DNA of 64,000 bases, taken from positions 26,745 to 90,744 of the forward strand of contig JAYQTA010000005.1 of the NCBI GenBank assembly GCA_038147155.1, given 5' to 3'. Below, in pieces: positions 1 through 14,986 of this stretch. The notes beneath the pieces were generated by a model. It saw only the letters and a program-made list of their open reading frames with translations. It made no database searches and was not told where the DNA came from. The position numbers and the translations under genes were made by a program. Source of the DNA: Candidatus Australimonas brisbanensis. Its GTDB lineage: Bacteria > Chloroflexota > Dehalococcoidia > Lucifugimonadales > Australimonadaceae. How positions within the stretch are numbered: the stretch's first letter is position 1; each line of letters starts with the position of its first letter.

Positions 1-244
1 TCTGAAGGCTTGGCGGATTCGGCCCGGCGAAGGCCGCTACGTCGTCGGACATGGACGAGTAGTTGAACGTCCATCCGTAGCGCACTTCCGTCTGGTCACG
101 AACGAATCGCTCGGTGCTCTTCTTGAACACCAGAGCGCCCAGCTCGTACCCCTCCTCCTGGAACCGGCGCGCCAGATGATGCCCGATGCGCAGGCCCCAG
201 CCGCGCTGCTGGAAGATGAGGATCCGCTTACCGCCAGAGGCCAT
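1..244 (-). CDS. hypothetical protein, N-terminal part only (gene runs off left edge)
   Basis: ATG at 244 with AGGAG upstream. Reads MASGGKRILIFQQRGWGLRIGHHLARRFQEEGYELGALVFK and stays open to position 1. Last visible gene of the minus-strand glycan operon. Absent from the ORF track because it is truncated. Confidence 0.4.
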   Translation of the reverse strand, partial: MASGGKRILIFQQRGWGLRIGHHLARRFQEEGYELGALVFKKSTERFVRDQTEVRYGWTFNYSSMSDDVAAFAGPNPPSLQ

Positions 245-255
245 GTGCTCGCTCC

Positions 256-1272
256 TTACGCCCACGTACCGCCGCCCGCCTCACGCGCACGCAGCGCCAG
301 GCCCAGCGCCTCCGCGCCCTCGCGCGCCGTCTGCGCGGGCCGTGACCCGTCCAGCACGCAGGCCAACAGGTGCGTCAGTTCGTCCACGTACATGGCGTTC
401 CCGTCCCAGACGGGCTCATCCACCACGTCCGTCCACGCGCCTGTGGCTCTGCTGTAGAGGCGCACGTGCACGTGCTCAGGAGGCGGACCGTCGGAGCGCC
501 ACACCGCCACGCCCTCGCTGCCCACCACCTCGCACCCGCGCGCCTTCTCGGGGCGCAGGTAGTCCACGTGCGTCGCGGACACGGCACCCGAGGCGTGGGC
601 CAGCGTGAAGACCGCCGTGTCCTCCCCGTCCACCTCCAGGTCCGAGACCCTGGCCCAGCGGGCGTCCACGCCCGTGACCGGCCCTGCGAGCCAGCGCAGG
701 TAGTCGAACTCGTGCACCGCCTCCACCAGGATGCCTCCCCCCTCGGCCATGCGGGCCGAGTAGGTTCGCCGGTAGTCGGTCTGGGGGCGCCAGTCAGGCA
801 GGTACTGGCCGAACTCGGCCCGCAGCAGCAGGGGGCGGCCCACGGCGCCCTCGTCCAGCAGCCGCTTGAGCGCGGCGGGGCCGGGGTGGAAGCGCATGTT
901 CGCGCCCACCATGGCCACGCGTCCCGAGCGCTCCGCCGCTGCGGCGATGGCTTGGGCGTCCTCCCGGGTCACGGCGATGGGCTTCTCCACGAACAGGTGC
1001 GCGCCTGCCTCCAGCGCCACGACGGCGGCCTCGCGGTGCAGGTGCGTGGGGGTGCAGACGAAGACGAGGTCAGGCGCGGCGTCCAGCACCTGCGCCAGCC
1101 CCGGCGCCCACCGGGCGCCCGACGCGCGGGCCACGGCGGCCTTGGCGGGGTCGGCGTCAGTGGCAACCAGCGAGCCCACGCCCGCCGCGGCCAGGTTGCG
1201 CAGGTGGCGCGAGCCGATGGAGCCGAGGCCCACCACGCCCACGCGCAGTGCGCCCACGCGCGGGTCGCTCAC
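256..1272 (-). CDS. Gfo/Idh/MocA family NAD(P)-dependent oxidoreductase
   Basis: N-terminal Rossmann motif RVGVVGLGSIGSRH and family-typical EKP motif (LFVEKPIA). Start chosen at GTG 1272, which overlaps the upstream TGA (GTGA), rather than at the ORF-track start 1335. Confidence 0.8.
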   Translation of the reverse strand: MSDPRVGALRVGVVGLGSIGSRHLRNLAAAGVGSLVATDADPAKAAVARASGARWAPGLAQVLDAAPDLVFVCTPTHLHREAAVVALEAGAHLFVEKPIAVTREDAQAIAAAAERSGRVAMVGANMRFHPGPAALKRLLDEGAVGRPLLLRAEFGQYLPDWRPQTDYRRTYSARMAEGGGILVEAVHEFDYLRWLAGPVTGVDARWARVSDLEVDGEDTAVFTLAHASGAVSATHVDYLRPEKARGCEVVGSEGVAVWRSDGPPPEHVHVRLYSRATGAWTDVVDEPVWDGNAMYVDELTHLLACVLDGSRPAQTAREGAEALGLALRAREAGGGTWA

Positions 1273-1937
1273 TCCAGCCAACGCACCACCTCGAACGCCT
1301 CGGCGCGCGTGAGCCCCGCGGTGGCTCCGCGCCACGTAGCCAGCGCCTCCACCGCCTCCGGGGAGCGCGGGTGCGGGAAGGGGCGCAGCTCACCCGCATA
1401 GCACGCGAGGGCGCGCTGCTTGGCCTCCAGGGTTGCCGAGACGTCCACGAAGTGGGCTGGAGCGAACTGCGGCCCCGCCGCGCCGAAGCCCCACTCCGTC
1501 GCCGAGGGCACCTCGAAGGTGAGCACCCGGCGTACCGCGCTCTCCGGCAGTGGGCGCGTGGCGGTCACCACCGCCTGATGGGTGATGCGGTGGTCCACGT
1601 TCAGGTCCCCCGCGTGGTGGGTGTAGACGGTGTTGGGCGCGATGCGCGCCACCAGCCGCTCCACCGCCTGCACCACGTCCAGCAGCGCCAGGGTGTCGAA
1701 CCGGTTGTCCGGCAGGCCCAGGCACACCACCTCGGCCGCGCCCAGCACCCTGCCCGCCTCCTGGGCCTGGGCAGCCAATGCCCCCGTCGCCCCTGCGGGC
1801 GCACCGGCGCGGGAGGTCGCCCCCTCGCCCAGTATGGCGATGTGCACCTGCTCCCCATCGGCTGCCAGCCGGGCCACGGTGCCGCCGCAGCCGAGCACCT
1901 CGTCGTCGGGGTGCGCCGCCACCACCAGGACACTCAT
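1269..1937 (-). CDS. PIG-L/LmbE family N-acetylsugar deacetylase
   Basis: MSVLVVAAHPDDEVLGCGGT zinc-binding motif plus a downstream HxDH region (DLNVDH). ATGA overlap with the upstream gene. Confidence 0.85.
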   Translation of the reverse strand: MSVLVVAAHPDDEVLGCGGTVARLAADGEQVHIAILGEGATSRAGAPAGATGALAAQAQEAGRVLGAAEVVCLGLPDNRFDTLALLDVVQAVERLVARIAPNTVYTHHAGDLNVDHRITHQAVVTATRPLPESAVRRVLTFEVPSATEWGFGAAGPQFAPAHFVDVSATLEAKQRALACYAGELRPFPHPRSPEAVEALATWRGATAGLTRAEAFEVVRWLE

Positions 1938-2632
1938 GACTGCTCCTCCTCCGGGGTGATGCGCACCTGGGCCGTCAGCGCGCCACCCTCCAGCCGGGCG
2001 CCGGAGAGGGTGAGTCGCAGGCCGCCATGCCGCAGGAAGGCGCGGGGGTACCCCTCCGCGTCCAGCATGCGGATGAAATCGTACGCGGCCTGTGGGGTGA
2101 GCCCCTCCGGCAGCGCGCTCTGCTCCGGGGTGCGGCGCGTGAACAGCACCGGCTCACCCTCCTGGGGCACCGGCTCGACGGGGTGGGCGGCGAGTTGACC
2201 CGCCACCTCCAACGCCAGCCGGGAGGCGCGCTCGTACACCTCCTGCGCCGTGCCCTCCAGCGAGAGGGGGCGCTTGGCGTACACGGGGCCCGCGTCCATC
2301 TCCCCCGTCATGCGGATCGCAGTGAGCACCGTCTCGCGGTGGCCGCGCACGATCAGGTTCTGGAGGGGGCTGCCACCGCGCCCGTAGGGCAGGTCCGTCA
2401 TGTGGAAGTTGACGCAGGTGAACCGTTCAAGCAGCGCCTGCGGCACCTTCCACGACCAGTGCAGGAAGAAGACGAAGGCGGGGTCCAACGCCTCCAGGCG
2501 CTCGGCGGTCAGTTCCGCACGCGCACCGATGAAGGCCCACTCTCCGGGGGCTTCGCGCACCCACTCGTCGAAGAGTCGCCTGTTCCACGGGTGCACCGCC
2601 GCCACCACGTATCGTCCAGCGCCAGCCCCCAT
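1934..2632 (-). CDS. formyltransferase-fold protein (Met-tRNA formyltransferase-like, nonulosonic-acid-cluster type)
   Basis: VNFHMTDLPYGRGGSPLQN motif of the formyl transferase N-domain. Start moved to ATG 2632 (MGAGAGRYVV), which abuts the pseI-like stop (TGATG). Confidence 0.7.
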   Translation of the reverse strand: MGAGAGRYVVAAVHPWNRRLFDEWVREAPGEWAFIGARAELTAERLEALDPAFVFFLHWSWKVPQALLERFTCVNFHMTDLPYGRGGSPLQNLIVRGHRETVLTAIRMTGEMDAGPVYAKRPLSLEGTAQEVYERASRLALEVAGQLAAHPVEPVPQEGEPVLFTRRTPEQSALPEGLTPQAAYDFIRMLDAEGYPRAFLRHGGLRLTLSGARLEGGALTAQVRITPEEEQS

Positions 2633-3693
2633 CAGCCCACCAGATCCCAGGAGACCGGCGTGCCGCGCTGCACGTCGCGCGCGGCGCGCCGCCCGATCAC
2701 CGCATCGTAGTAGCACGGAGCAAGACCCGCGCCGGGGCGGATCGAGCGCACGTTGACGGGGGTGAGTTCCTCCCCGGCCCGCACGTCTTCGACGAAGAAG
2801 AGCGAGCGCTGGAAGACGGTGTTGCCGGACTCGGCCTCGGTGGGTGCGTAATTCACCGTGCCCAGCGCCTGCTCGGCGACGCGCACCCCGTCCACCAGCG
2901 CGCGCAGCTCCGCGGGCTCCATGGAGAAGGCGGCGTCCGGGCCGCCGTGGGAGCGCGAGAGGATGAAGTGCTTCTCGATGAAGCAGGCGCCCAGGGCCAC
3001 CGATGCCACCGCGGCGGCGATGCCCATGCTGTGGTCCGAGAAGCCCACTGGCACCCCGAAGGCGCCCGCCAGGTGCGGGATGGTGCGCAGGTTCAGGGTG
3101 GAGGCGGGCGCAGGGTAGGCCGAGGAGCAGCGCAGCAGGATCAGCTGCTCGTTGCCCTCCGCGCGCATGGTGCGCACGGCCTCATCGATGTCCGCCAGGC
3201 GCGCCATGCCGGTGGACAGCACCACCGGCTTGCCCGTGCGGGCGACCCGGCGCAGCAGCGGGGTGTCCATCAGCTCGAAGGAGGCGACCTTGTGCGCGGG
3301 GACCCCCATCTCCTCCAGGAAGTCCACCGCCGTCGCGTCGAAGGGGGTGGAGAAGAGGGTGATGCCGATGCGGTCGGCCTCCTCCTTCAGCCGGGGCTGC
3401 CACTCCCAGGGGGTGTAGGCCTGCTGGTAGAGCTGGTGGAGGGTGAGCCCGCCCCAGGTGTTGGAGGCCGGGAGCCGGAAGTGCGGCCCATCGGCGTCGA
3501 TGGTCATGGTATCGGGGGTGTAGGTCTGGAGCTTGACCGCATCCGCCCCGCACTCCTTGGCCTGGTGCACCAGCTCCAGCGCCCTGGCGTAGTCGTGGTT
3601 GTGGTTCGCGGAGATCTCCGCCACCACGTACACCGGCTGACCAGGGCCGATGGCCCGGCCTGCGATCTCAACCACTCTCGGGGGAGTGCTCAT
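2632..3693 (-). CDS. pseI: N-acetylneuraminate-synthase family enzyme, pseudaminic acid synthase-like
   Basis: VVAEISANHNHD and KLQTY motifs of the NeuB/PseI/SpsE family. C-terminal SAF-like domain. Sits in a pseB/pseC/pseG context. Confidence 0.85.
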   Translation of the reverse strand: MSTPPRVVEIAGRAIGPGQPVYVVAEISANHNHDYARALELVHQAKECGADAVKLQTYTPDTMTIDADGPHFRLPASNTWGGLTLHQLYQQAYTPWEWQPRLKEEADRIGITLFSTPFDATAVDFLEEMGVPAHKVASFELMDTPLLRRVARTGKPVVLSTGMARLADIDEAVRTMRAEGNEQLILLRCSSAYPAPASTLNLRTIPHLAGAFGVPVGFSDHSMGIAAAVASVALGACFIEKHFILSRSHGGPDAAFSMEPAELRALVDGVRVAEQALGTVNYAPTEAESGNTVFQRSLFFVEDVRAGEELTPVNVRSIRPGAGLAPCYYDAVIGRRAARDVQRGTPVSWDLVG

Positions 3694-4529
3694 CCCTGCC
3701 TGCTCCTGATCAGGCCCATCGGGCCCGGCTTGTCGAACCCCACGTCGCCCTCCTCCGCCAGGTAGAGCCGCAGGTGCACACGGCGCCCGTCCTCCTCGAA
3801 GTAGGCCCCGCCGTAGGGGGGAAAGGTGCGCGCGCGCAGCAGGTCGATGAGCTCGCGTCCCGTGTAGGTGCGGTCCAGGTCCACCCGGTCGATGCGCTCA
3901 ACGTCGGCGCGCCGGTGCGCCGTGCCACCCGCGGGCTGCGGGATGCGCGGCGCGGCCCCTGATCGCACCTGCGGCCATGCGCCGGTGAACACCCGGAAGG
4001 CAGCATCCTCCAGCTTGGCGTAGAGGCTCTCCCCCGTGTCGGTGGAGGCCACCGGCACCTGCTCCTGGGCGATGAGGTCGCCCGTGTCCACCCCCGCATC
4101 GATGTGGTGGAGTGTTGCCCCGGCGGGCGTCCCCTCCACGATGGCCCACACGTTGGGGTACTGGCCCCGGTTGTACGGCAGGTAGGACGGGTGAAGGTTC
4201 ACCACACCATGGGGGAACAACTTCAGGAACGGCACGCGCAGAATGTGGTCGAACAGGACCGACACGGCGATGTCCGCGCCCCAATCGCGAACACGGGCCA
4301 GGGTGCGCTCATCGGTCAGGTCCCGGCCCAGCACCACACACTCCGGGGCCAGCCCGTCGGCCGCACGCTCCAGCAGCGTGGCGCAGGTGCGCCGTTCCGG
4401 CGCATGGAGCACCAGCCCCACCACGTCCTCGCCCTGCGCGCGCAGCCACGTCAGCACCCGTGCGCCCAGCGCGTTGTTGACCAGGCACACCACGCGGACC
4501 GGAGCAGTGGTCTCGCTCATGGGGCTCAT
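3690..4529 (-). CDS. sugar N-formyltransferase-like protein
   Basis: NLHPSYLPYNRG and HHIDAGVDTGDLI motifs (Asn-His-Asp formyltransferase catalytic set). Start at ATG 4529 (MSPMSETT) overlaps the pseG stop (ATGA). The upstream part of ORF 3690..4790 is Arg/Gly-rich and looks non-coding. Confidence 0.75.
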   Translation of the reverse strand: MSPMSETTAPVRVVCLVNNALGARVLTWLRAQGEDVVGLVLHAPERRTCATLLERAADGLAPECVVLGRDLTDERTLARVRDWGADIAVSVLFDHILRVPFLKLFPHGVVNLHPSYLPYNRGQYPNVWAIVEGTPAGATLHHIDAGVDTGDLIAQEQVPVASTDTGESLYAKLEDAAFRVFTGAWPQVRSGAAPRIPQPAGGTAHRRADVERIDRVDLDRTYTGRELIDLLRARTFPPYGGAYFEEDGRRVHLRLYLAEEGDVGFDKPGPMGLIRSRQG

Positions 4530-5590
4530 TCTAACGCCTCGCTCATCAGCGCCCCAGCGACGCGCGATGCGCCTTTCCCGTCCACCAGGGCGCGGGCGGC
4601 CGCCGCCAGCGACTCCCGTTGAGTCTGCACATCCAGCAGGCGGGTGATGACGCTGGTGAGCACCAGGGCATCCGGTGCCTCGCCCATGCTCACTGCGGCA
4701 CCGGCGGCATCCAGCGCTGCCGCGATGCGCGCCTGGTTGTCTGCGATGACCACGGCCACGGTGGGCACGCCCAGGTGGGCCAGCTCCCACACCGTCGAAC
4801 CCGCGGCGCTCACCGCCAGGTCCGCCGCGGCCAGCAGCCCCGGCATGCCCTCCGGCGCCACTTCCAGCGTCACGGGCATGGGCAGCGATGCGACCTGCGC
4901 GCGCAGCGCCGGCAGGTTCGGGTTAGCCGCGCCGACGATGGCCGTGACGGCGAAGCCGGGGTGTGCCCGGTGCGCCGCGGCCAGCGCCCCCAGCGCCGCT
5001 CCCGTGTGGTTGGACGGGTCTGCGCCGCCCATGGTGACCACCACCCGGGCGACACGCTCCGGCTGGCGCTCGCGCCGCAGGCCAGGGGCCAGGAACTCCG
5101 GGCGCAGCAGCGCGTAGCGCGGGCCCAGCAGGGGGGCACAGTGGGCGGGCAGCCGGTAGGCGAGGGCCTCCGCGCCCAGGTTCTGGTTCAGCAGCAGGTC
5201 AGCTTCGTAGCCATCGCGCCCGCCCGCATCGTCCACCACCAGCGAGGCGGCGGCGTGCGCGCGCACGGTGCGCTGGTAGGCCGCATCGAAGTGGTAGCCG
5301 TCCAGCGCCGCGGCGCACCCCGGCATCGCATCGAGGGCAGCGAGCGTGGCGGGCAGGTCGGCAGGGTGCGGATGGTGGCCGGACAGGCGCTGCACGTCGA
5401 TGCCCATGCCCGCGGCGCGCGCTGCCAGCCCGTCGGGCTCGCAGTGGGTGAGCAGGCGCACTGCCCCACCCTGCTCGCGCCAGGCGGCGGCCAGGGCCAG
5501 GCACCGCATCAGGTGGCCGGTGCCCATGCCCGTGGTGGCGTCGGCGCGGATCAGCAGCGGGGGGCACGCCGGTGCAGTGTGCCTGGCCAC
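4526..5590 (-). CDS. pseG: UDP-2,4-diacetamido-2,4,6-trideoxy-hexose hydrolase-like glycosyltransferase-fold protein (PseG/SpsG type)
   Basis: LLIRADATTGMGTGHLMRCLALA N-terminus, typical of PseG/SpsG. GT-B fold size. GTG start abuts the upstream TAG. Confidence 0.8.
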   Translation of the reverse strand: MARHTAPACPPLLIRADATTGMGTGHLMRCLALAAAWREQGGAVRLLTHCEPDGLAARAAGMGIDVQRLSGHHPHPADLPATLAALDAMPGCAAALDGYHFDAAYQRTVRAHAAASLVVDDAGGRDGYEADLLLNQNLGAEALAYRLPAHCAPLLGPRYALLRPEFLAPGLRRERQPERVARVVVTMGGADPSNHTGAALGALAAAHRAHPGFAVTAIVGAANPNLPALRAQVASLPMPVTLEVAPEGMPGLLAAADLAVSAAGSTVWELAHLGVPTVAVVIADNQARIAAALDAAGAAVSMGEAPDALVLTSVITRLLDVQTQRESLAAAARALVDGKGASRVAGALMSEALE

Positions 5591-7630
5591 CTAGACCTTC
5601 CGGAAGACCGGCTGGACGGGTGCCCCCTTGAGGAACCGCGACGGTTCGCCCGAATCTATGGCGGCGGCGAGCACCTCCAGCGCCCCGTTGTAGGCGCGCA
5701 GCACGTCACGCACGTCCGCGTCCGTCATGGCTGCGCATACGTTGTGGAACCCCAGGGTCAGCACCCCCCGCTCGCCCACCTCCTGCTGGAGGAGGCTCTT
5801 GAGCACCAGCGTCGGGTCGCTGAACACCAGCACGCTGCGCGCGCCCAGCCCATCACAGCGCACGGCATCGCTCACCCGGTGGCGCTGCGCCAGGACGTTG
5901 AACCCGTCCATGAGCTTCTGGCCCACTTCCCACAGGTGCGGGAACGTCTCCGGGCGGCGCAGCTCGGCCAGGGTGGCCTGCGCTGCGGCCAGGGATGCCG
6001 CCTCACCCCCGAAGGTGAAGGAGAAGAACACCTCGTCCAGCAGCCGCATCACCTCTGCCCGCCCCGCGATGGCCGAGAGGGGCATGCCGTTGGCCAGGGC
6101 CTTGCCGTAGCAGGCCAGGTCCGGCTCCACGCCGAAGAACTCCTGCGCCCCGCCCAACCCCAGCCGGAAGCCGGTGATCACCTCATCGAAGATGAGCAGC
6201 GCGCCGTGCCGGTGGGCCATATCGCGCACCCCCTCCAGGAAGCCGGGTTCCGGCATGGTGGAGATGAAGGGTTCCATGATCACGCCAGCCACCTGGCCGG
6301 GGTGCTGGGTGAAGACGCGCTCCAGGCTCGCCAGGTCGTTGTAGGCGAAGGGGACGGTGAGCTCACGCACCGCCTGGGGGACGCCCAGTGCGCGCGTGGT
6401 GGTGCCGATGTACCAGTCCTGCCAGCCGTGGTAGCCGCAGGACGCGATCACGTCGCGCCCCGTGTGGGCGCGGGCCAGGCGCACCGCGGCGGAGGTGACG
6501 TCCGACCCGTTCTTCCCGAAGCGCACCATGTCCGCGCAGGGGATCAGCGCGCACAGCTCCTCCGCCACCTCCAGCTCCACCGGGTGCGGGAGCGAGAGTG
6601 CCGTCCCCTCGGCCAGCTGGCGGGTGATGGCCCCGGTGACCGCAGGGTGGTTGTGGCCCAGGATGATGGGCCCCAGCCCCAGGATGGTGTCCACGTACTC
6701 GTTGCCATCCACGTCCCACACGCGGGCGCCCTGCCCGCGCTGGAGGTAGACGGGCAACACGCCCTGGACGAACTGGCCGGGGTTCTTGGAGAAGGTTTGG
6801 GTGTAGGAGGGGATGACCCGCCCTGCCCGCTCCTTCAGCGCGAGGGAGCGCCCCTGCGCCAGCGCGCGGGCGGGCGTGGGGGGTTCAGCGGCGATGGTCT
6901 CGTAGTACCAGCGGTCGCGGACCACGCCATGGTTCAGGCGGGCCAGGGCCGGGTCGGCGTCCAGCAGGGCCAGCACCGTCGCAACGCCTGCGCCAGCGGG
7001 GTCGGCGCCGAGGCGGGCGTAGATGCCGCGCACCAGGTCCAGGTCCGGCTGCTCATCCACCGACAGGTGCAGGGTGAGTGCGCGGTGCGGGAGGTCAGAG
7101 CGCAGCGAGGCCTTGGTGAACCCATCCGTGCGGCGGATGTACCAGGTGACGTGCTCCCGGTCGGCGGGAGTCTCACCCTCCCACGCGGCACGCTCCAGTG
7201 CGTCCAGCCGCACGGCCTCCACGTCCACTCCCTCGGGGAAACCCCCGCCCAGATTCGACGCGTAGTCGGCGTCCGCGTCCCTGCGGGCCGCGACGACGCC
7301 ATCGATGACGGCGCTATCCAGCAGCGGGCAGTCGCCCGTCAGACGCACCACCACGTCGGCCCGCGCCTCGCGTGCTGCGCCCAGGGTGCGCTCCAGCACA
7401 TCGGTGAGGCTGCCACGGTGGCAGACGACGCCCTCGGTGGCGCACAGGGCGGCGATGGGGTCATCCGAGGGATCGGTGGACGTGGCGACCACCACCGCGT
7501 CCACACGCTGGGCACGCTGGGCGCGCTCCAGCACCCACGCCAGTAGCGGGCGGCCTGCCACCTCAGCCAGAGACTTGCCCGGCAGGCGCGACGAGGACAT
7601 GCGGGCCTGGATCACGGCGACGGTCCTCAT
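5591..7630 (-). CDS. fusion protein: SpsF/PseF-like cytidylyltransferase (N) + class-III aminotransferase, glutamate-1-semialdehyde aminomutase-like (C)
   Basis: N-terminus MRTVAVIQARMSSSRLPGKSL (SpsF/acylneuraminate cytidylyltransferase motif). C-terminal about 430 aa carry the class-III PLP fold (GYHGW, FDEVITGFR, YGKALANG). One uninterrupted frame. Start at ATG 7630 overlaps the pseC stop. Confidence 0.75.
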   Translation of the reverse strand: MRTVAVIQARMSSSRLPGKSLAEVAGRPLLAWVLERAQRAQRVDAVVVATSTDPSDDPIAALCATEGVVCHRGSLTDVLERTLGAAREARADVVVRLTGDCPLLDSAVIDGVVAARRDADADYASNLGGGFPEGVDVEAVRLDALERAAWEGETPADREHVTWYIRRTDGFTKASLRSDLPHRALTLHLSVDEQPDLDLVRGIYARLGADPAGAGVATVLALLDADPALARLNHGVVRDRWYYETIAAEPPTPARALAQGRSLALKERAGRVIPSYTQTFSKNPGQFVQGVLPVYLQRGQGARVWDVDGNEYVDTILGLGPIILGHNHPAVTGAITRQLAEGTALSLPHPVELEVAEELCALIPCADMVRFGKNGSDVTSAAVRLARAHTGRDVIASCGYHGWQDWYIGTTTRALGVPQAVRELTVPFAYNDLASLERVFTQHPGQVAGVIMEPFISTMPEPGFLEGVRDMAHRHGALLIFDEVITGFRLGLGGAQEFFGVEPDLACYGKALANGMPLSAIAGRAEVMRLLDEVFFSFTFGGEAASLAAAQATLAELRRPETFPHLWEVGQKLMDGFNVLAQRHRVSDAVRCDGLGARSVLVFSDPTLVLKSLLQQEVGERGVLTLGFHNVCAAMTDADVRDVLRAYNGALEVLAAAIDSGEPSRFLKGAPVQPVFRKV

Positions 7631-8772
7631 GCCCCTGCCTCCCGAAGCGCCCCATCGAGCGCCGCCACCACCCTGTCCACGTCTGCGTCGGTCATGGCCG
7701 GGAAGAGCGGGAGGGTGAGCAGTTCGTCGTAGGCGGCCTCGGCGGCCGGACACAGCCCCCGGCTGGTGCCGAACCGCTCCCGGTAGTAGGTGTGCAGGTG
7801 CACCGGCAGGTAGTGGACGTTCACGCCGATGCCCGCCGCGCGCAGCGCATCAAACACCCTGGCGCGCACCGCGGCAGGCACCCGCACCGGGTAGATGTGG
7901 TAGGCGTGCTCCACGCCGGGGCGCACCGCCACCGGGCGCACGTCCGCAAGCGCCGTCAGCCCCGCGTCGTACCGCGCGGCAAGCGCGCGCCGGCGGGCCA
8001 ACCAGGAGGGCAGGTGCCGCAGCTGGCTGATGCCCAGGGCGCAGGCGATGTCGGAGAGGCGGTAGTTGTAGCCCAGGTCCACCATCTCGTAGACCCAGGT
8101 GCCCTGGGCGGAGCGCTGACGGTGGTCGACGTCGATGCCGTGGTTACGGAAGCGGCGCGCGCGCCCGGCCAGCGCCTCGTCGGCGCTCACCACCATGCCG
8201 CCCTCCCCCGTGGTGACGTGCTTAACGGGGTGGAAGCTGAACACCGTTGCGTCGGCGAGAGTGCCCACGGGCACCCCATCCAGCGCGCCCCCCAGGGCGT
8301 GGCACCCGTCAGCGAAGAGCAGCGCGCCGTGCTGGTCCGCCAGGGCCCGCAGCGCCGGGTAATCGGCGGGTTGGCCCGCGTAGTCAACAGCGATGATGGC
8401 CCGGGTGCGCGGGGAGATGCGCTCTGCGGCCTGTGCGGGCCCCAGCAGCAGCGTGGCGGGGTCCACGTCGGCGATCACGGGCGTTGCGCCGCAGTAGAGG
8501 GCGGCGTTGGCCGTGGCCGCGAAGGTGAGGGCGGGGACGATGACCTCATCGCCGGGGCCCACGCCCGCCGCGGCCAGCATGGCATGGAGCGCCGCGGTGC
8601 CGGAGGAGACGGCGACGGCGTGCGGCGCGCCCACCACAGCCCCCACCGCAGCCTCGAACCGTTCCACCGCCGGGCCCGTGGTGAGCCAGGACGAGCGGAG
8701 CACCTCGGCCACCGCCGCAACGTCAGCCTCGTCCAGCTGCTGGCGCCCGTAGGGTAGGAACGGCTCGCTCAT
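7627..8772 (-). CDS. pseC: DegT/DnrJ/EryC1 family aminotransferase (PseC-like UDP-4-keto-6-deoxy-sugar transaminase)
   Basis: PYGRQQLDEADVAAVAEVLRSSWLTTGP N-terminus and FSFHPVKHVTTGEGG PLP-lysine motif. Confidence 0.85.
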   Translation of the reverse strand: MSEPFLPYGRQQLDEADVAAVAEVLRSSWLTTGPAVERFEAAVGAVVGAPHAVAVSSGTAALHAMLAAAGVGPGDEVIVPALTFAATANAALYCGATPVIADVDPATLLLGPAQAAERISPRTRAIIAVDYAGQPADYPALRALADQHGALLFADGCHALGGALDGVPVGTLADATVFSFHPVKHVTTGEGGMVVSADEALAGRARRFRNHGIDVDHRQRSAQGTWVYEMVDLGYNYRLSDIACALGISQLRHLPSWLARRRALAARYDAGLTALADVRPVAVRPGVEHAYHIYPVRVPAAVRARVFDALRAAGIGVNVHYLPVHLHTYYRERFGTSRGLCPAAEAAYDELLTLPLFPAMTDADVDRVVAALDGALREAGA

Positions 8773-9791
8773 CGCTCCTGCTCACCACCTTCGGCCGCGC
8801 CGGACGCCTGGGCCATGGCCACCAGCTGCTCCACGGTGAGCCAGGCGTCATTGGTATCGGATGCGTAGGCAAACCCGTCCGGCAGCCGGGCACCCGCCTC
8901 CCACGCTCCGCCGTCCCACCATCCGTGCGAGGGCTCGATGACGTACCGGTCACCCACGTCCACGGCGGTGCGTGCCTCGTCCACGGAGAGCATCGACTCG
9001 TGGAGCTTCTCGCCGGGCCGGATACCGATCAGTTCCACCGCGCACTCGGGGGCGATGGCCCTGGCCAGGTCCGTCACCCGCATGCTGGGGAGCTTGGGGA
9101 CGAACACCTCGCCGCCGACCATCTCCTCCACGCACCGGGTCACGAAGCGCACGCCCTCTTCCAGCGTTATCCAGAAGCGAGTCATGCGCTCATCGGTGAT
9201 GGTGATGCGGCCAGTGTGCCGCTGTTCCCGGAAGAGCGGCACGACGCTGCCCCGGCTGCCCACCACGTTGCCGTAGCGCGTGCAGGCGAAGCGCGTCCCG
9301 GTTTCCCCGGAGTATGCGTTGCCCTGGATGAACAGCTTCTCAGCGCACAACTTGGTGGCCCCGTACAGGTTCACGGGGTTCACCGCCTTGTCGGTGGAGA
9401 GGGCCAGCACCTTGCGCACACCCCGGTCGATCGCCGCGTCGATGATGTTGGAGGCGCCGAGGACGTTGGTCTTGATGGCCTCCATGGGGTTGTACTCGCA
9501 GGCGGGCACCTGCTTGAGCGCCGCGGCGTGGATCACCACGTCCACCCCGTTGAACGCGCGGTAGAGGCGCTCGCGATCGCGCACGTCGCCGATGAAGTAC
9601 CGGATCGGCGTATCGCCCGTGTCCGGGAAGCGTTGGCGCATCTCGTGCTGCTTGAGCTCATCGCGGCTGAAGATGATGAGCTTGTTGGGCCGGTGCTCGC
9701 GCAGCAGCACCTCAGTGAACTTCTGCCCGAAGGAGCCAGTGCCTCCCGTCACCAGGACGTTGAGGCCCGACCAGTCCCACCGCTCGCTCAT
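8769..9791 (-). CDS. pseB: UDP-N-acetylglucosamine 4,6-dehydratase (inverting), PseB/FlaA1-like
   Basis: VLVTGGTGSFG, IFSRDELKQ and YGATK motifs. Start at ATG 9791 (MSERWDW) with a GGGGAG upstream. The ORF-track start 9854 is probably too far upstream. Confidence 0.85.
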   Translation of the reverse strand: MSERWDWSGLNVLVTGGTGSFGQKFTEVLLREHRPNKLIIFSRDELKQHEMRQRFPDTGDTPIRYFIGDVRDRERLYRAFNGVDVVIHAAALKQVPACEYNPMEAIKTNVLGASNIIDAAIDRGVRKVLALSTDKAVNPVNLYGATKLCAEKLFIQGNAYSGETGTRFACTRYGNVVGSRGSVVPLFREQRHTGRITITDERMTRFWITLEEGVRFVTRCVEEMVGGEVFVPKLPSMRVTDLARAIAPECAVELIGIRPGEKLHESMLSVDEARTAVDVGDRYVIEPSHGWWDGGAWEAGARLPDGFAYASDTNDAWLTVEQLVAMAQASGAAEGGEQER

Positions 9792-9881: not shown

Positions 9882-11690
9882 CTAGGCGCCGGGGGCCTCC
9901 GCGCCCGCCATGGCGCGGAAGTGGGCGTTGGAGGCCATCAACTCGGCATGGGTGCCGCTGTCCACGATGGCTCCGCTCTCGACCAGGTAGATGCGCTCGC
10001 ACGCGATGACGGTCTTGAGCCGGTGGGCGATGATCACCGTGGACACGGGCCCTCCCGGGCCGTTGAGCGCGGCGAGCACCGCGTCCTCCGTCACGCCGTC
10101 CAGCGCGTTGGTCGCCTCGTCCAGCACCAGCAGGGCCGGCTGGCGGTAGAGGGCGCGGGCGATGCCGAGGCGCTGGCGCTGACCTCCGGAGAGGCGAACG
10201 CCTCGGTCACCGACCGTGGTCTCGTACCCGCTGGAGAGCGCTGCGATGAAACCGTCCGCTTGAGCAAGCCGCGCCGCACGCTCGACGGCTTCATGGTCCA
10301 CCTGTGCGGGCGGCACGCCGAAGGCGATGTTGGCGGTGACCGTGTCGTCGATGAGATAGACCTCCTGGGTCACGTACCCGATGCCTCTCTGCCAGGCGGG
10401 CACCTGAACGTCGGTCAGTGCCACGCCATCCACCTCCAGCGCCCCCTCCTGCGGGCGCAGCAGCCCCAGAAGCAGGTCCACCAGCGTGGTCTTCCCCGCC
10501 CCGGTGGTGCCCACCAGACCGACCCGTGAACCGGCGGGCACCTCCAGCGTCACCCCCTGAACCGCGGGCGTGGAGGCACCGGGGTAGGTGAAGGCGGCCC
10601 CCCGAAGCGCCGCTCCCTGAACCAGGGGCAGCGTGCGCAGCCCACGCTGGGCGGCCTCCCGCTGCTGGGTCGATTCCTCGTCCTCCATGTCGGCCAGGAT
10701 CGCCTCCGCGACAGGCACGTTGAAGCGGAGCGTCACCGCGCTGGAGTAGAGCGTCTGCAGGTGGGGGATCAGCCGGTACCCCGCGAAGGCGAAGAGGCCG
10801 ATGGTCGGCAGGATGCTGTCGAGCGGGTGGTTGCGGGCGATCATGACCAGTGTGACGCCCATGAGCCCACCGAAGGCCAGGACCAGGATCGCGAAACGGG
10901 GCAGTTGGGCGAGTACCTCCGTCTGCGCCATGTTCCGGCCCAGCCTGCGGAAGGGCGCCGTGAACTTCGCCAGGAAAACGCTTTCGTTCCCCAGCAGCTT
11001 GATGGTCTTCACTCCGCCCAGGGCCTCGGCAGTGGCCCTGTAGCGTTGCTCGTTGTCCACCACCCGCTCCTGGCCCAGGCGTCGCAGCCGCCGGCGCAGC
11101 ACCGCGAAGAGCGCCCCGTACACGGAGCCAGCGATGAGCCCCACTCCGATGGCGATACGCCAGTCCACATACACCAGCAGCGCTCCCACAAGGGTCACCA
11201 CCAGCGCTCGGGAGATGAAGGTGAGCGCAGGCACCGCAACGCCGCTGACGAACTGGTCCACGTCATAGAGAACCCGGCCAGACATCTGTGCGGTGTTGCG
11301 GGTGAGGAAGTAGGCGTAGGGCTGGTGGAGGTAGTGGCGCAGCAAACGCCGGGCCGTATCGCGCACCAGCGACCAGAAGAACCGCTGGGTGAACCAGATC
11401 ATCATGGCGCCCGCGATGTTGGCCAACACGAACAGCCCGAAGACGATGATGCCGGTTGCCAGGAGCAGGTCACGCTGGGTCGTGGTCCCCAGCAGGTCAG
11501 CGAGGGAGAGGAGGAACCGGTTCCGTTCGACCTCGGAGGGGTTGGCCAGCAGGGCGAGGAACGGGGCGATGGAGGCGATGCCCACCATGTCCAGCATCCC
11601 GACCACCGCCGAGAGGCCAAGCAGCCCCCAGGCGCCGCGGCGCTGCGCTGGTCCGCCTATGCGGTACGAGAGGAAGATCGCCCGCCACAC
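9882..11690 (-). CDS. ABC transporter, fused permease/ATP-binding exporter (MsbA-like)
   Basis: Six-TM N-domain. Walker A GTTGAGKTT, signature LSGGQRQR, Walker B LLVLDEAT. Confidence 0.85.
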   Translation of the reverse strand: MWRAIFLSYRIGGPAQRRGAWGLLGLSAVVGMLDMVGIASIAPFLALLANPSEVERNRFLLSLADLLGTTTQRDLLLATGIIVFGLFVLANIAGAMMIWFTQRFFWSLVRDTARRLLRHYLHQPYAYFLTRNTAQMSGRVLYDVDQFVSGVAVPALTFISRALVVTLVGALLVYVDWRIAIGVGLIAGSVYGALFAVLRRRLRRLGQERVVDNEQRYRATAEALGGVKTIKLLGNESVFLAKFTAPFRRLGRNMAQTEVLAQLPRFAILVLAFGGLMGVTLVMIARNHPLDSILPTIGLFAFAGYRLIPHLQTLYSSAVTLRFNVPVAEAILADMEDEESTQQREAAQRGLRTLPLVQGAALRGAAFTYPGASTPAVQGVTLEVPAGSRVGLVGTTGAGKTTLVDLLLGLLRPQEGALEVDGVALTDVQVPAWQRGIGYVTQEVYLIDDTVTANIAFGVPPAQVDHEAVERAARLAQADGFIAALSSGYETTVGDRGVRLSGGQRQRLGIARALYRQPALLVLDEATNALDGVTEDAVLAALNGPGGPVSTVIIAHRLKTVIACERIYLVESGAIVDSGTHAELMASNAHFRAMAGAEAPGA

Positions 11691-11747: not shown

Positions 11748-13064
11748 TCACAGCCTCCAGTAGCTCAGGTGCCGCGCGGCGGCGGCGGCCGGGTCCACCA
11801 GCCCCTTGACGTCCACCACCACGCCACCGGGGGTCACGGTCTGCATCCAGTTGGCCGCGGACTCACGGAAGGAGCGGTGCGCAACGGCCACCACCACGGC
11901 ATCGAAGCCGCGGGCGAAGGAGGTGTGGGGCTTGATACCCAACGCCTCAATCTCCGCCGCCGACAGGTGCGGGTCGTGCGCCAGCACCTTGGCCCCGGCC
12001 TCCATGAGCGCGTGGGTCAGCGCCACCGCGCCGGAGTTGCGGGTGTCCCGCACCTCCTCCTTGAAGGTGAGGCCCAGCACCAGGATCAGCGACTTCCCGA
12101 TGGGCTTGCCCGCCGCCTCCAGCAGACGCACCGTCTCCCCTGCCACGTGGCCCGGTATCGCATCGTTCACGCGGCGCCCCGCCAATATCAGCTCCGGCTC
12201 ATGCCCGGCGCGCCGCGCCGCGTAGGTGAGGTAGTACGGGTCCACCGGGATGCAGTGCCCGCCCACCAGGCCCGGGGTGAAGGGCAGGAAGTTCCACTTG
12301 GTGCGCGCGGCCTCCAGCACGGCTTGGGTGTCCACGCCCATGCGCGGGAAGAGCAGCGCCAGTTCGTTCATCAGGGCGATGTTCACGTCGCGCTGGACGT
12401 TCTCGATCACCTTGGCCGCCTCGGCCGTGCGGATGTCGGGTGCGCGGTGCACCCCTGCCGCCGCCACCAGGCTGTACACCCCGGCCACCCGCTCCAGCGT
12501 GGCGGCGTCCATGCCGGAGACCACCTTCACCACCTGGGCCAGGCCGTGGACGCCGTCACCGGGGTTGATGCGCTCAGGCGAGTAGCCCACCACGAACCCC
12601 TCGCCGGCGTGCAGGCCCGATGCCTCCTCCAGGATGGGGACGCACACCTCCTCGGTGCAGCCGGGGTAGACGGTGGACTCGAGCACAACCACCGGCGCGG
12701 GGCCCTCGGCGCGGCGCTGCGCCAGCGCCTGTCCCACCGTGCGGCTCGCCGCCTGGAGCGGGCCCAGGTCCGGCTCCTTGGACTCCTCGTGCACCGGCGT
12801 GGGCACGGAGACCACGAAGAAGCCCGCCTCGGCCAGGTCGTGCGGGTCCGAGGAGAAGCGCAGCAGCCCCTGGCGCAGCACCCCGGTGGGCACGTCGCCG
12901 TTGCGGTCCACGCCGCGGCGCAGTTCGGCGATGCGCTCACGGTTGATGTCGAAGCCGATGGTGCGCACGTGCTGGGCGAGGGCGGCGGCCAGCGGCAGGC
13001 CGACGTAGCCCTGGCCGATGACGGCGATACAGGACGGGAGGGCGGGGTCAGGGATGGTGGTCAC
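11748..13064 (-). CDS. nucleotide-sugar 6-dehydrogenase, TviB/WbpO-like (UDP-N-acetylhexosamine dehydrogenase type)
   Basis: IAVIGQGYVGLPLAAAL, then IGFDINRERIAELRRG. Catalytic GGHCIPVDP motif. Confidence 0.8.
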   Translation of the reverse strand: MTTIPDPALPSCIAVIGQGYVGLPLAAALAQHVRTIGFDINRERIAELRRGVDRNGDVPTGVLRQGLLRFSSDPHDLAEAGFFVVSVPTPVHEESKEPDLGPLQAASRTVGQALAQRRAEGPAPVVVLESTVYPGCTEEVCVPILEEASGLHAGEGFVVGYSPERINPGDGVHGLAQVVKVVSGMDAATLERVAGVYSLVAAAGVHRAPDIRTAEAAKVIENVQRDVNIALMNELALLFPRMGVDTQAVLEAARTKWNFLPFTPGLVGGHCIPVDPYYLTYAARRAGHEPELILAGRRVNDAIPGHVAGETVRLLEAAGKPIGKSLILVLGLTFKEEVRDTRNSGAVALTHALMEAGAKVLAHDPHLSAAEIEALGIKPHTSFARGFDAVVVAVAHRSFRESAANWMQTVTPGGVVVDVKGLVDPAAAAARHLSYWRL

Positions 13065-13097: not shown

Positions 13098-14024
13098 CTA
13101 GCGGACTCGACCGGTGCGCAGGCTCTCGACGGTGGCCCCGATACCCGCCTCCAGCGGCGTGCGCGGGGCCCAATCCAGCTCACGGTGGGCGGCTGACGCA
13201 TCGAGCCAGACGCGCTGCACATCGCCAGAGCGGGACGGGGCGTGCCGGGGGTCAAGCGCGTAGCCGGTGGCGCGCGCCAGCGATGCGAACAGCTCGTTCA
13301 CGCTGGTGCCCACGCCCGTGCCGACGTTGTAGACGCCACTCTCCCCTGCCTCCAGGGAACGCAGGTTGGCATCCACCACGTCGGCCACGTACACGAAATC
13401 GCGCTGCTGCTCTCCATCGCCGAAGATGGTGACGGGCTCGCCCGCCAGCATCCGCGCCGCGAAGATCGCCACCACGCCCGCCTCCCCCGCAGGGTCCTGA
13501 CGCGGGCCGTACACGTTGGCGTAGCGCAGGATCACGGCGTCCATGCCGGACTGCGCGGCGAGCGCGTGGACGTAGGCTTCACCCGACGCCTTGGACGCCC
13601 CGTAGGGCGAGAGGGGCCGGATGGGGTGGCGCTCATCGCACGGGAGCGTGTGCGGCTCGCCGTAGAGCGCCCCGCCGGTGGAGGAGAAGACGAACCGGCC
13701 CACCCCCGCCGCAGCGCACGCGCGCAGCAGGTTCAGGGTGCCCAGCACGTTGACGCGGGCGTCGTGCTCCGGCTCGCGCACCGACTCGGACACCGAGGCG
13801 TGGGCGGCCAGGTGGAACACCGCCTCCGGGGCCTGCTCCACCACCAGGACGGTCAGCGCCGGATCCAGGATGTCCATCGCCACCAGGTGAGCGCCGGGGG
13901 GCACCTGCTCACGCCGTCCGGTCGACAGGTCGTCCACCACCGTCACGGCGTGGCCCGCCGCCACCAGCGCGTCGGTCAGGTGCGAGCCGATGAAGCCCGC
14001 CCCGCCGGTGAGGAGCACCCTCAT
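13098..14024 (-). CDS. NAD-dependent epimerase/dehydratase (GalE-like)
   Basis: MRVLLTGGAGFIGSH and YGASK motifs. Start at ATG 14024 overlaps the upstream TGA (ATGA). Confidence 0.8.
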   Translation of the reverse strand: MRVLLTGGAGFIGSHLTDALVAAGHAVTVVDDLSTGRREQVPPGAHLVAMDILDPALTVLVVEQAPEAVFHLAAHASVSESVREPEHDARVNVLGTLNLLRACAAAGVGRFVFSSTGGALYGEPHTLPCDERHPIRPLSPYGASKASGEAYVHALAAQSGMDAVILRYANVYGPRQDPAGEAGVVAIFAARMLAGEPVTIFGDGEQQRDFVYVADVVDANLRSLEAGESGVYNVGTGVGTSVNELFASLARATGYALDPRHAPSRSGDVQRVWLDASAAHRELDWAPRTPLEAGIGATVESLRTGRVR

Positions 14025-14986
14025 GGCAGCGGGACCTCCAGCACCCACTCTCGGTTCTCCCGGTACCAGTCCACCGCGCAGGCCAGCCCCTGGGCCAGCG
14101 AGGTTCGCGGCTCCCAGTCCAGCAGGCGCCGCGCCTTGGAGATGTCGGCAGAGGTCCTCGGCACGTCTGCGGGGTGGGAGGGGACGTACTCCACCTGCGC
14201 TGGCCGCTCCAGCAGCCCCTCCAGCGTGGCGATGACGCCGTTGATGGACTCCGGCTCATCGCCGCCCAGGTTGATGATCTCGTACCCCAGGGGACGCAGG
14301 GCCGCCACCGTGCCGCGCGCCACGTCCTCCACGAAGGTGAAGTCGCGGCTCTGGGTGCCGTCACCCGTCACCCGCAGCGTTTCCCTCTCGGCGATCCAGC
14401 GGATGAACCGGAAGATGCTCATGTCGGGGCGGCCCGCCGGGCCGTACACGGTGAAGTAGCGCAGGACGCTCACGTCCAGCCCGTGCAGGTGGTGGTAGGT
14501 GTAGCAGAGCGCCTCCGCCGCCTTCTTGCTGGCGGCGTAGGGGGAGAGGGGCCGGTCGGTGGGGTCGTCCTCGCGGAAGGCCCCCTCCCGCACCCCGTAG
14601 GCGGAGGAGGTGGATGAGAGGACGAACTTGCCCACCCCATGCGTCCGGCACGCCTCCAGCAGGTTCAGCGTGCCCGTGAGGTTGGTGGCGTAGTAAGCCC
14701 ACGGGTCGTCCACGGAGGGCTGCACCCCGGCGCGGGCCGCCAGGTTCACCACCGCCGCCGGGGCCTCCTGGGCGAACAGCGCCGCGACGGCGTCACGGTC
14801 GGTGATGTCCGCTCGCTGGAAGGTGAACCCGGGCTGGGCGCGCAGGCGGGCCAGGCGCCACTCCTTCAGGCGCACGTCATAGGTGGCGTTGAGGTTGTCC
14901 ACGCCCACGACGCGCTCGCCCTGCTCCAGCAGCCGCGCCGCCACCTGGGAGCCGATGAATCCGGCGGCGCCCGTCACCAGGATCAC
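14021..14986 (-). CDS. NAD-dependent epimerase, UDP-glucuronate 4-epimerase-like
   Basis: ILVTGAAGFIGSQVA, DNLNATYDVRLKEWRL and YAASK motifs. GTG start overlaps the ugd stop (GTGA). Confidence 0.8.
   Translation of the reverse strand: MILVTGAAGFIGSQVAARLLEQGERVVGVDNLNATYDVRLKEWRLARLRAQPGFTFQRADITDRDAVAALFAQEAPAAVVNLAARAGVQPSVDDPWAYYATNLTGTLNLLEACRTHGVGKFVLSSTSSAYGVREGAFREDDPTDRPLSPYAASKKAAEALCYTYHHLHGLDVSVLRYFTVYGPAGRPDMSIFRFIRWIAERETLRVTGDGTQSRDFTFVEDVARGTVAALRPLGYEIINLGGDEPESINGVIATLEGLLERPAQVEYVPSHPADVPRTSADISKARRLLDWEPRTSLAQGLACAVDWYRENREWVLEVPLP

Follow-up and report, generated by a model that had tools for sequence, protein, structure and literature searches.

The left end of the 64-kb window (the whole stretch of 64,000 nucleotides analysed here, from Candidatus Australimonas brisbanensis contig JAYQTA010000005.1) carries an operon of nine minus-strand genes (g9 to g1, positions 256-9791) that combines the core enzymes of pseudaminic acid (Pse) biosynthesis with a set of tailoring enzymes. 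On balance, we consider that this operon makes a cytidine monophosphate (CMP)-activated, N-formylated Pse derivative that would feed a surface glycan. Nonulosonic acids cap the outer tip of bacterial surface glycans, and their N-substituents govern charge as well as antibody and phage recognition. The initial annotation of the window had predicted a formylated and further N-tailored product rather than plain Pse5Ac7Ac, and this is still the best-supported reading, since the formyltransferase g5 is, by a narrow margin, closest to PseJ and its relatives occupy the place of PseH in other genomes. The tailoring set had also been described as non-canonical; it is, but it is not peculiar to this genome, being a modular cassette found across phyla. 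The tailoring enzymes fall into two separable modules, namely a PIG-L deacetylase with a 1ZGH-like formyltransferase, and a Gfo dehydrogenase with a class-III aminotransferase.

The core of the pathway is readily recognized from the curated NCBIfam models. PseB (g9), PseC (g8), PseG (g6) and PseI (g4), all listed in the initial annotation, score 499.4, 440.7, 205.2 and 469.1 bits with TIGR03589, TIGR03588, TIGR03590 and TIGR03586, against cut-offs of 407.75, 423.5, 153.55 and 340.25, respectively. The catalytic and cofactor motifs are intact across all nine proteins g1-g9; they include GGTGSFG (residues 16-22), STDKA (132-136) and YGATK (143-147) in PseB, and in PseC the SFHPVKH stretch (179-185) with the pyridoxal phosphate (PLP) lysine. 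Because the four Pse models pass their cut-offs whereas the NeuB, LegB and LegC models fail theirs, the pathway is, as judged from these families, of the pseudaminic and not the legionaminic or sialic type. The comparison of Pse, Leg and Neu models that had been proposed as a check thus narrows the original label, 'pseudaminic/legionaminic-acid-like', to its first half. The type of the synthase had been named as a possible refutation, and g4 is PseI-type, the NeuB_NnaB model giving it 309 bits, below the cut-off of 399.65.

By family assignment, PseB and PseC would convert UDP-GlcNAc into UDP-4-amino-4,6-dideoxy-beta-L-AltNAc, after which PseG would remove uridine diphosphate (UDP) and PseI would condense the sugar with phosphoenolpyruvate. 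The logic is shared with the canonical CMP-Pse pathway of Campylobacter jejuni and Helicobacter pylori (PseB, PseC, PseH, PseG, PseI and PseF), in which a UDP-GlcNAc-derived 6-deoxy-L-altrose is likewise condensed with phosphoenolpyruvate and then activated with CMP. Unlike that pathway, the window has no PseH GNAT, its cytidylyltransferase lies outside the PseF family and is fused to an aminotransferase, four extra tailoring enzymes are present, and the context is glycan assembly, not flagellar. The missing PseH and the missing stand-alone PseF had both been noticed before, and wider searches agree. No GNAT or other acetyltransferase was found in the 64 kb, either among the Pfam-scanned open reading frames (ORFs; the scan took large ORFs with coding-like G+C at third codon positions, GC3, rather than every ORF) or with a PseH-like hidden Markov model (HMM) that was built from 13 GNATs of related loci and run on all window ORFs of at least 70 aa. 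An HMM search of the same ORFs detected no second cytidylyltransferase. An acetyltransferase just past the left edge had also been raised as a possible refutation; two Logan contigs (SRR26337512 and SRR26337511), which are identical to the window over the 14,246 bases shared with it, extend 10 kb past that edge, and none is present in these 10 kb.

The place of PseH is probably taken by g5. This protein matches Formyl_trans_N (PF00551, 79.8 bits) and N_formyltrans_C (PF18216), and its Asn111, His113 and Asp148 are invariant in the 23 members of its family. Searched as a single sequence, its top solved relative is 'formyltransferase PseJ' (6ci4, 102.7 bits, E 1.6e-28), followed by 4nv1 (a 243-aa formyltransferase, 100.3 bits), the LgrA formylation domain, Rv3404c and VioF. 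A profile of the 23-member family returned the solved relatives in the same order (PseJ 140.4 bits against 136.1). PseJ (PDB 6ci2, 6ci4, 6ci5 and 6edk) and g5 have the same catalytic core motif, the same kind of Pse-cluster setting and the same predicted reaction, N4-formylation of the PseC product. PseJ is cited as the enzyme completing the Pse5Ac7Fo pathway (PMC11040635). Such sugars are found in nature: Pse5Ac7Fm occurs in the lipopolysaccharide of Pseudoalteromonas distincta, and Pse5Hb7Fm in the lipopolysaccharide and pili of P. aeruginosa O7 strains (PMC13576459). We therefore expect, with fair though not full confidence, that g5 would formylate N4 of the UDP-sugar instead of PseH acetylating it, giving a nonulosonate with a 7-N-formyl group.

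We have surveyed the loci of g5 relatives, taking one genome per species. The family has 1,624 matches at E <= 1e-10, and the survey returned 80 loci, nearly all from metagenome-assembled genomes (MAGs), which span Planctomycetota, Chloroflexota, Acidobacteriota, Myxococcota, Omnitrophota, Nitrospirota and Armatimonadota and also include archaea; the closest match among the genome representatives has 60% identity. By family HMMs, 47 of the 80 loci are complete, that is, they contain g5, PseB, PseC, PseG and PseI. In all 47 the formyltransferase lies within the Pse cluster; a PseH-like GNAT is missing from 37 of them, and 17 possess g5 as their sole detectable N-acyltransferase. Two simple loci that are fully annotated by Pfam consist of PseC, (a methyltransferase), CTP_transf_3, PseG, the formyltransferase and NeuB, with no other acyltransferase, and the formyltransferase in these simple loci occupies the position that PseH has in pseBCFGHI clusters. 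Because the formyltransferase sits in Pse clusters that mostly lack PseH, and in the simple loci at the place of PseH, we read it as a functional PseH replacement. The same gene set as in the window recurs across phyla, without a GNAT in L082 (Dehalococcoidia) and with a GNAT in L035, L037 and L076. Cassettes of this type are widespread in environmental bacteria and common in uncultured ones, and the window is a clean, tightly coupled example of them. One variant was also seen (L002/L013, MAG JAHLLH010000002.1), in which a g5-type formyltransferase stands beside a radical SAM/SPASM protein, a WbqC-like protein and an amidohydrolase; there a CTP_transf_3::Gfo fusion is followed by a DegT aminotransferase, so that the dehydrogenase and not the aminotransferase is fused to the cytidylyltransferase.

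Activation of the sugar can be assigned with more assurance. As had been reported for the window, a cytidylyltransferase and an aminotransferase are fused, and g7 is indeed one 679-aa protein with CTP_transf_3 and Aminotran_3 domains. Its N-terminal domain scores 103 bits with CTP_transf_3 and 31 bits with the PseF model TIGR03584, for which the cut-off is 205.7. However, the minimal cassettes and the simple loci have a single cytidylyltransferase, a stand-alone relative of this domain (38-52% identity), and on this ground the domain most likely does the job of PseF although it lies outside the PseF family. That it acts as the CMP-Pse synthetase is, in our view, very probable.

The first tailoring module comprises g2 and g3. 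The deacetylase expected from the initial annotation is there: g2 matches PF02585 (PIG-L) with 95.5 bits, and its metal-binding motifs, AHPDDE (residues 8-13) and DH (115-116), are shared without change by all 28 family members. The claim of two formyltransferase-fold proteins is likewise borne out, g5 by the two domains described above and g3 by Formyl_trans_C_2 (PF21553, 66 bits) with a Formyl_trans_N match slightly under the cut-off (25.3 against 26.1 bits). Full Asn/His/Asp motifs had been credited to g5 alone; g5 does possess them, but so does g3, in the form of an Asn-x-His motif (Asn75 and His77) and Asp113. The best solved relative of g3 is a structural-genomics entry, 1ZGH, named 'methionyl-tRNA formyltransferase' (201.9 bits), for which our literature search found no functional study. 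In the 47-locus set, g3 is always accompanied by g2 (13 of 13 g3 loci; Fisher p = 2e-7, with the kinship of loci ignored), while g2 occurs without g3 in six loci. That g3 is never found without g2, and g2 sometimes alone, fits with g3 working on the product of g2. Relatives of the two also occur in minimal eight-gene cassettes with the order PseB, PseC, CTP, PseG, formyltransferase, g3-like, PIG-L and PseI. It is plausible, at slightly less than even chances, that g2 strips the 5-N-acetyl group derived from GlcNAc and that the 1ZGH-like g3 re-acylates the freed amine, probably with formyl.

A chemical parallel to this module has been described in Ca. Kuenenia stuttgartiensis. CMP-nonulosonates with one free and one formylated amine, together with O-methylated forms, were assigned there to a gene cluster that includes a deacetylase and a formyltransferase (bioRxiv 10.64898/2026.04.20.719630), and earlier work had already shown the free amine on Kuenenia S-layer glycans (10.1101/2020.12.03.409086). 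That cluster, as described, and the window both embed a deacetylase and a formyltransferase in nonulosonate genes, and methyltransferase genes lie downstream of the window operon. In contrast, the Kuenenia cluster is called Leg-related by its authors whereas the window is Pse-type, and the window has a second formyltransferase-fold protein and the Gfo/aminotransferase module in addition. The formyl step is of an already known kind (PseJ, Pse5Ac7Fo) and the deacetylase/formyltransferase combination has a recent precedent. The deacetylase step is accounted for by this 2026 preprint only, and the dehydrogenase/aminotransferase step has no existing explanation. If only Pse5Ac7Fo or a deacetylated form of it is made, the finding is an ordinary one.

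The second module comprises g1 and the C-terminal domain of g7 (g7C). The Gfo/Idh/MocA oxidoreductase noted earlier is confirmed by Pfam in g1, which has the motifs GLGSIG (residues 15-20) and EKP (96-98); its best solved relatives, 3q2i and 3q2k (~79 bits), are given generic names in the PDB table, and we take them to be WlbA-type UDP-GlcNAcA 3-dehydrogenases. For g7C, the scores are 183.6 bits with Aminotran_3 and 411.7 bits with PRK06209 (under its cut-off of 486), and YGK lies at residues 508-510. The top solved relatives are glutamate-1-semialdehyde aminomutases (223 bits), and the domain is also akin to aminotransferases that work on sugar or polyketide carbonyls, among them the sugar C-6' aminotransferases (177 bits). 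Pairs of a dehydrogenase and an aminotransferase are known to make sugar amines, as in WbpB/WbpE (UDP-GlcNAc3NA), KdnB/KdnA (Kdo8N) and the aminoglycoside C-6' steps, and the two-step logic of these pairs is the one that we propose for g1 and g7C. The partner aminotransferase of g1 is class III, however, while WbpE is of the DegT type, and the proposed substrate is a nine-carbon ulosonic acid without a primary alcohol. To our knowledge, no product is known from the action of such a pair on a nine-carbon ulosonic acid.

Co-occurrence and fusion link this pair to the nonulosonate pathway. Within the 47-locus set, a Gfo gene is present in 12 of the 15 aminotransferase loci (p = 1e-4, kinship of loci ignored), independently of the first module (p = 0.54). 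The CTP::AT3 fusion (AT3, Aminotran_3) accounts for 10 of 24 aminotransferase-domain matches across the fetched loci, and about 60 of the best 150 cluster representatives from a library of 1.84 billion proteins cover the full-length g7 query, as counted by eye. Other fusions are Gfo::AT3 (P0379, P0397, P0404 and P0422), Gfo::CTP::AT3 (P0368), NeuB::AT3 (P0402) and GNAT::CTP::AT3 (P0392), and these connect the two enzymes of the module with one another as well as with CMP activation and the nonulosonate synthase. Class-III aminotransferases of the same family are also fused to an SDR epimerase/dehydratase, a methyltransferase and an APH-type kinase (P0460, P0476 and P0433), which suggests that the partner set is wider than in the window.

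The number of acyltransferases can be compared with the number of amines that each locus should generate, counted as one for PseC, one more if AT3 is present and one more if PIG-L is present. This count equals the number of N-acyltransferases (g5, GNAT and g3) in 32 of the 47 loci, and an extra GNAT is commoner in aminotransferase loci, which hold 8 of the 10 GNAT loci (p = 6e-4, kinship of loci ignored). The window has three amines and two transferases on our favoured reading, so one amine could remain unacylated, which is also the case in the Kuenenia sugar. We tentatively suggest that g1 could oxidise a hydroxyl group on the nonulosonate, with the CMP-activated form as its probable substrate, and that g7C could turn the resulting ketone into a third amino group. 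A more specific proposal, which we regard as doubtful, is that the pair converts the C4 or C8 hydroxyl of CMP-Pse to an amine, and that the product would be a triamino nonulosonic acid that is formylated and possibly keeps one free amine. If this is true, the module, present in many phyla and in Aeromonas and Legionella clusters, would mark an unrecognised branch of nonulosonate chemistry.

Those clusters offer a useful comparison. In the group I polar-flagellin islands of Aeromonas (PMC7874193) and in the O-antigen cluster of L. pneumophila Sg6/Sg12 (PMC3694923), a class-III aminotransferase of the same type stands beside pseF and pseG with an oxidoreductase nearby, just as the window aminotransferase adjoins a cytidylyltransferase and PseG. 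Unlike in the window, the genes there are unfused, the oxidoreductase is an aldo-keto reductase and not a Gfo protein, PseH or other acetyltransferases are present, and no formyltransferase is reported. Through the fusions, a long-overlooked 'GSA aminomutase' annotation in Aeromonas, in Legionella and in clusters of many MAGs becomes a concrete hypothesis, open to in vitro tests.

Several points weigh against the product proposed here and must be set beside the evidence above. The lead of PseJ over the dTDP-sugar formyltransferases is narrow, since dTDP-Qui4N formyltransferases score nearly as high on g5 (100.3 bits) as PseJ does (102.7 bits, over the core only). In addition, g5 carries the C-terminal PF18216 dimerisation domain as dTDP-sugar formyltransferases do, while PseJ, with 217 aa, is too short for it, and orthology between g5 and PseJ is not established. 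A PseH-like GNAT accompanies g5 in 10 of the 47 loci, so g5 need not always act at N4, and a PseH may be encoded elsewhere in this genome. As for g3, His77 and Asp113 are invariant in its family of 20 members, but at position 75 fifteen of the 20 carry Cys and just two, one being the window protein, carry Asn; because the catalytic Asn is usually replaced in this way, the chemistry of g3 may differ from classical formyl transfer. The hydroxyl group oxidised by g1 cannot be read from the sequence, our literature search brought up no nonulosonic acid that bears a third amine, and the co-occurrence p-values take no account of how the loci are related.

That the literature search returned no triamino nonulosonate also favours the view that the Gfo/class-III pair adds no amine to the backbone, and instead carries out a redox epimerisation with some other role for the PLP enzyme, or supplies an unusual amino-acyl donor for N-acylation. 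The similarity of g7C to glutamate-1-semialdehyde aminomutases would suit such a role, as would the Aeromonas and Legionella clusters, where the same aminotransferase type is paired with an aldo-keto reductase and no triamino sugar is reported. A Gfo::AT3 fusion, however, is a classic mark of consecutive dehydrogenase and transaminase steps, and aminotransferase loci tend to have one more N-acyltransferase. We hold this view to be unlikely, though it deserves to be kept in mind.

A further alternative is that only Pse5Ac7Fo is made, by g9, g8, g5, g6, g4 and the N-terminal domain of g7, and that g1, g2, g3 and g7C modify another sugar of the glycan, for example a 3-amino uronic acid formed in the manner of WbpA/WbpB/WbpE through the TviB-like dehydrogenase g11. 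The locus clearly builds a multi-sugar glycan, a TviB/WbpA-like dehydrogenase and epimerases lie a short way upstream of the operon, and g1 is closest to 3q2i and 3q2k, whose presumed WlbA-type identity would point the same way. Yet a g11-like dehydrogenase accompanies Gfo/AT3 in just 1 of the 47 loci, fusion joins the aminotransferase to the cytidylyltransferase both in the window and in many other genomes, and to NeuB elsewhere, and g3 and g2 lie between PseG/formyltransferase and PseI in the minimal eight-gene cassettes, where no further sugar pathway is encoded. This alternative is improbable, and a WbpA/WbpB/WbpE-like role for g1 and g7C in particular is weakened by the lack of g11-like co-occurrence, by a class-III partner fused to CTP_transf_3 or NeuB, and by a g1 match of only ~79 bits.

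It is also conceivable that a canonical PseH, encoded elsewhere, makes a 7-N-acetyl group, and that g5 and g3 formylate the amines generated by g1/g7C and by g2. Such an arrangement has some basis in the 10 loci that have, besides g5, a PseH-like GNAT immediately following PseC, in 8 of which the GNAT is tied to the aminotransferase, and in the GNAT::CTP::AT3 fusion. Against it stand the 17 loci where g5, at the place of PseH, is the only detectable N-acyltransferase, the lack of any GNAT in our searches of the 64-kb window and the further 10 kb, and the fact that the nearest characterised relatives of g5 all use 4-amino-4,6-dideoxyhexoses; we consider it quite improbable. Although NeuB-family synthases and DegT aminotransferases are common to the Pse, Leg and sialic acid pathways and the NeuB model still gives 309 bits, a legionaminic or sialic acid product is barely credible and was rejected on the NCBIfam scores, since the four Pse models pass, NeuB (309 against 399.65), LegB (61.7 against 475) and, on g8, LegC (214.9 against 420) stay below their cut-offs, and the UDP-sugar hydrolase is PseG-type rather than a hydrolysing 2-epimerase of the NeuC/LegG type.

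The favoured CMP-activated, N-formylated Pse derivative would need a transferase and an acceptor. The initial annotation had found no flagellin, pilin or S-layer gene in the window, and none was matched among the Pfam-scanned window ORFs; its statement that the glycan acceptor is unknown can be qualified, because an ABC exporter gene precedes the operon, and the operon continues leftward into genes for a GT-B-fold protein, methyltransferases and glycosyltransferases, a setting that suggests a surface glycan, and not flagellin, as the acceptor. On the Logan contigs, g1 is followed by x1 (499 aa, with no Pfam match on record), a methyltransferase, a 291-aa kinase-like ORF and a GT2 glycosyltransferase, and then by an opposite-strand methyltransferase, a TylF-type methyltransferase and at least five GT4-family glycosyltransferases. 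PseB is preceded on its own strand by the ABC exporter g10, the TviB-like dehydrogenase g11, two epimerases and a second dehydrogenase. The Pse operon thus forms the central part of a locus for glycan assembly that exceeds 30 kb. The exporter g10 scores 301 bits with the MsbA model and 256 bits with PglK, both under the cut-offs; g11 scores 355.5 bits with TIGR03026 (against 189.8) and 372.8 bits with TviB, under the cut-off of 592. GalE-like matches were obtained for g12 (211.8 bits, under the cut-off) and for g13, the latter with GalE-like and dTDP-glucose-dehydratase-like models giving ~195 bits each, under their cut-offs. The 291-aa ORF (L001:16540-17415), between the methyltransferase and GT2, has no Pfam domain and gives faint kinase matches (lanthionine-synthetase kinase domain 3e-5, Kdo kinase 0.026); since an APH-kinase::class-III aminotransferase fusion exists elsewhere (P0433), a sugar kinase may belong to the pathway.

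Of these proteins, x1 is a plausible candidate for the nonulosonate transferase, a proposal that draws on its predicted model and on faint family matches. Two sub-threshold hits were obtained, BFO_1060 (25.8 bits, cut-off 200; 5e-6) and Capsule_synth (18.6 bits, cut-off 20; 1.4e-3); the BFO_1060 glycosyltransferase family is named for a nonulosonate transferase gene of Tannerella. The 287 homologues of x1 are mostly 'hypothetical', although some have Pfam matches to Capsule_synth (PF05159) or to the polysialyltransferase family PF07388, and one is named 'polysialyltransferase family glycosyltransferase'. The AlphaFold model of x1 is of high quality (mean confidence, pLDDT, 90.7; predicted template-modelling score, pTM, 0.90) and has a GT-B fold. 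Foldseek ranks UDP-GlcNAc 2-epimerases and GT1 enzymes highest (E ~1e-9, TM 0.22-0.32); these matches indicate a generic GT-B fold only, and the 50 matches listed contain no ulosonic-acid transferase, which counts against the assignment. The chances seem to us about even that x1 would add the sugar to a glycan which the downstream glycosyltransferases and methyltransferases assemble and which the MsbA/PglK-type ABC transporter helps to export.

Table 1. Genes and domains of the glycan locus within the window, from the left edge to the right-hand end of the locus.
Feature	Position	Strand	Basis or remark
x1, GT-B-fold protein, 5' end only in window	1..244	-	full 499 aa read from L001/L088
g1, Gfo/Idh/MocA NAD-dependent sugar dehydrogenase	256..1272	-	Pfam
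g2, PIG-L/LmbE-family de-N-acetylase	1269..1937	-	PF02585
g3, short formyltransferase-fold protein, 1ZGH family	1934..2632	-	PF21553
g4, PseI, pseudaminic acid synthase	2632..3693	-	TIGR03586
g5, PseJ-like sugar N-formyltransferase	3690..4529	-	PF00551 + PF18216
g6, PseG, UDP-sugar hydrolase	4526..5590	-	TIGR03590
g7 C-terminal domain, class-III (GSA-aminomutase-like) PLP aminotransferase	5591..6865	-	Aminotran_3
g7 N-terminal domain, CTP_transf_3 cytidylyltransferase	6896..7630	-	Pfam
g8, PseC, C4 aminotransferase	7627..8772	-	TIGR03588
g9, PseB, UDP-GlcNAc 4,6-dehydratase (inverting)	8769..9791	-	first gene of coupled block; TIGR03589
g10, MsbA/PglK-type ABC exporter, fused transmembrane and ATPase domains	9882..11690	-	ABC_membrane + ABC_tran
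g11, TviB/WbpA-like nucleotide-sugar 6-dehydrogenase	11748..13064	-	TIGR03026
g12, NAD-dependent nucleotide-sugar epimerase/dehydratase	13098..14024	-	GalE-like
g13, second NAD-dependent nucleotide-sugar epimerase/dehydratase	14021..14986	-	GalE-like / dTDP-glucose-dehydratase-like
Second UDP-glucose/GDP-mannose-family dehydrogenase, right-hand end of glycan locus	14983..16314	-	UDPG_MGDP_dh domains

Owing to the high G+C content of the window (~71%), genes were called via third-position GC bias, and the nine operon genes are placed as in the initial annotation. The seven stop/start overlaps listed there were re-read on the minus strand exactly as given: GTGA at 1269-1272, between g2 and g1; ATGA at 1934-1937, 3690-3693, 4526-4529, 7627-7630 and 8769-8772; and TGATG at 2630-2634. 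Besides these, the g7 stop directly abuts the g6 start (TAG then GTG), and the start of x1 at 244, in a gene that crosses the left window edge, is 11 nt past the g1 stop. A gene caller sets the g1 start nine bases further upstream, at 1281 (341 aa), and the overlap with g2 is kept. The strict translational coupling that was read from these junctions is compatible with them, but overlaps do not prove coupling, as they are usual in compact operons of high-GC genomes. A scan of positions 1-18200 returned no promoter-like site and one terminator-like site, inside g3, fewer than expected by chance, and an Rfam scan found three tRNAs only, all distant from the cluster.

At the right-hand end of the locus, the second dehydrogenase has the N-terminal, central and C-terminal UDPG_MGDP_dh domains, and its start is ATG 16314 by the GC2/GC3 profile (G+C at second and third codon positions). 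It occupies only the last 443 codons of a minus-strand frame of 1047 codons (14983-18126), a frame that is mostly a high-G+C artefact. Opposite the remaining part lies a Na+/H+ exchanger-like ORF on the plus strand (16418-17314).

Beyond ~16.3 kb, the window is ordinary chromosome, with aromatic-compound genes, mraW-ftsA-ftsZ, pdxA, proC, pepA and transporters. The FtsZ sequence shares 99% identity with its counterpart in a 'Chloroflexota bacterium' MAG, 82-88% with those of named Dehalococcoidia MAGs and 81% with that of a SAR202 MAG, which places the uncultured source near Dehalococcoidia, and the presence of FtsA excludes Actinobacteria despite the 71% G+C. In the division cluster (38740-42322), ftsA and ftsZ come directly after mraW (rsmH), without intervening mur, ftsW or ftsI genes; this reduced arrangement may suit a Dehalococcoidia-like cell that lacks a classical peptidoglycan wall. 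A single minus-strand ORF at 29055-31265 joins homocysteine S-methyltransferase and methylenetetrahydrofolate reductase domains, and this fusion of folate/methionine enzymes may be relevant to one-carbon supply, though it is far from the operon.

Two gene groups concern aromatic compounds. At 18057-24653, two Rieske/LigXa-like oxygenases (18057-19370 and 23226-24653), a luciferase-like monooxygenase and a LigB-type extradiol dioxygenase form what looks like a cluster for lignin-derived aromatic catabolism, unrelated to the glycan locus. At 54573-63666, the transporter genes TctA and TctC come before a tandem pair of UbiD-family decarboxylases, a UbiX-like flavoprotein, an amidohydrolase and an SDR protein, and this group is probably an aromatic-acid decarboxylation cluster.

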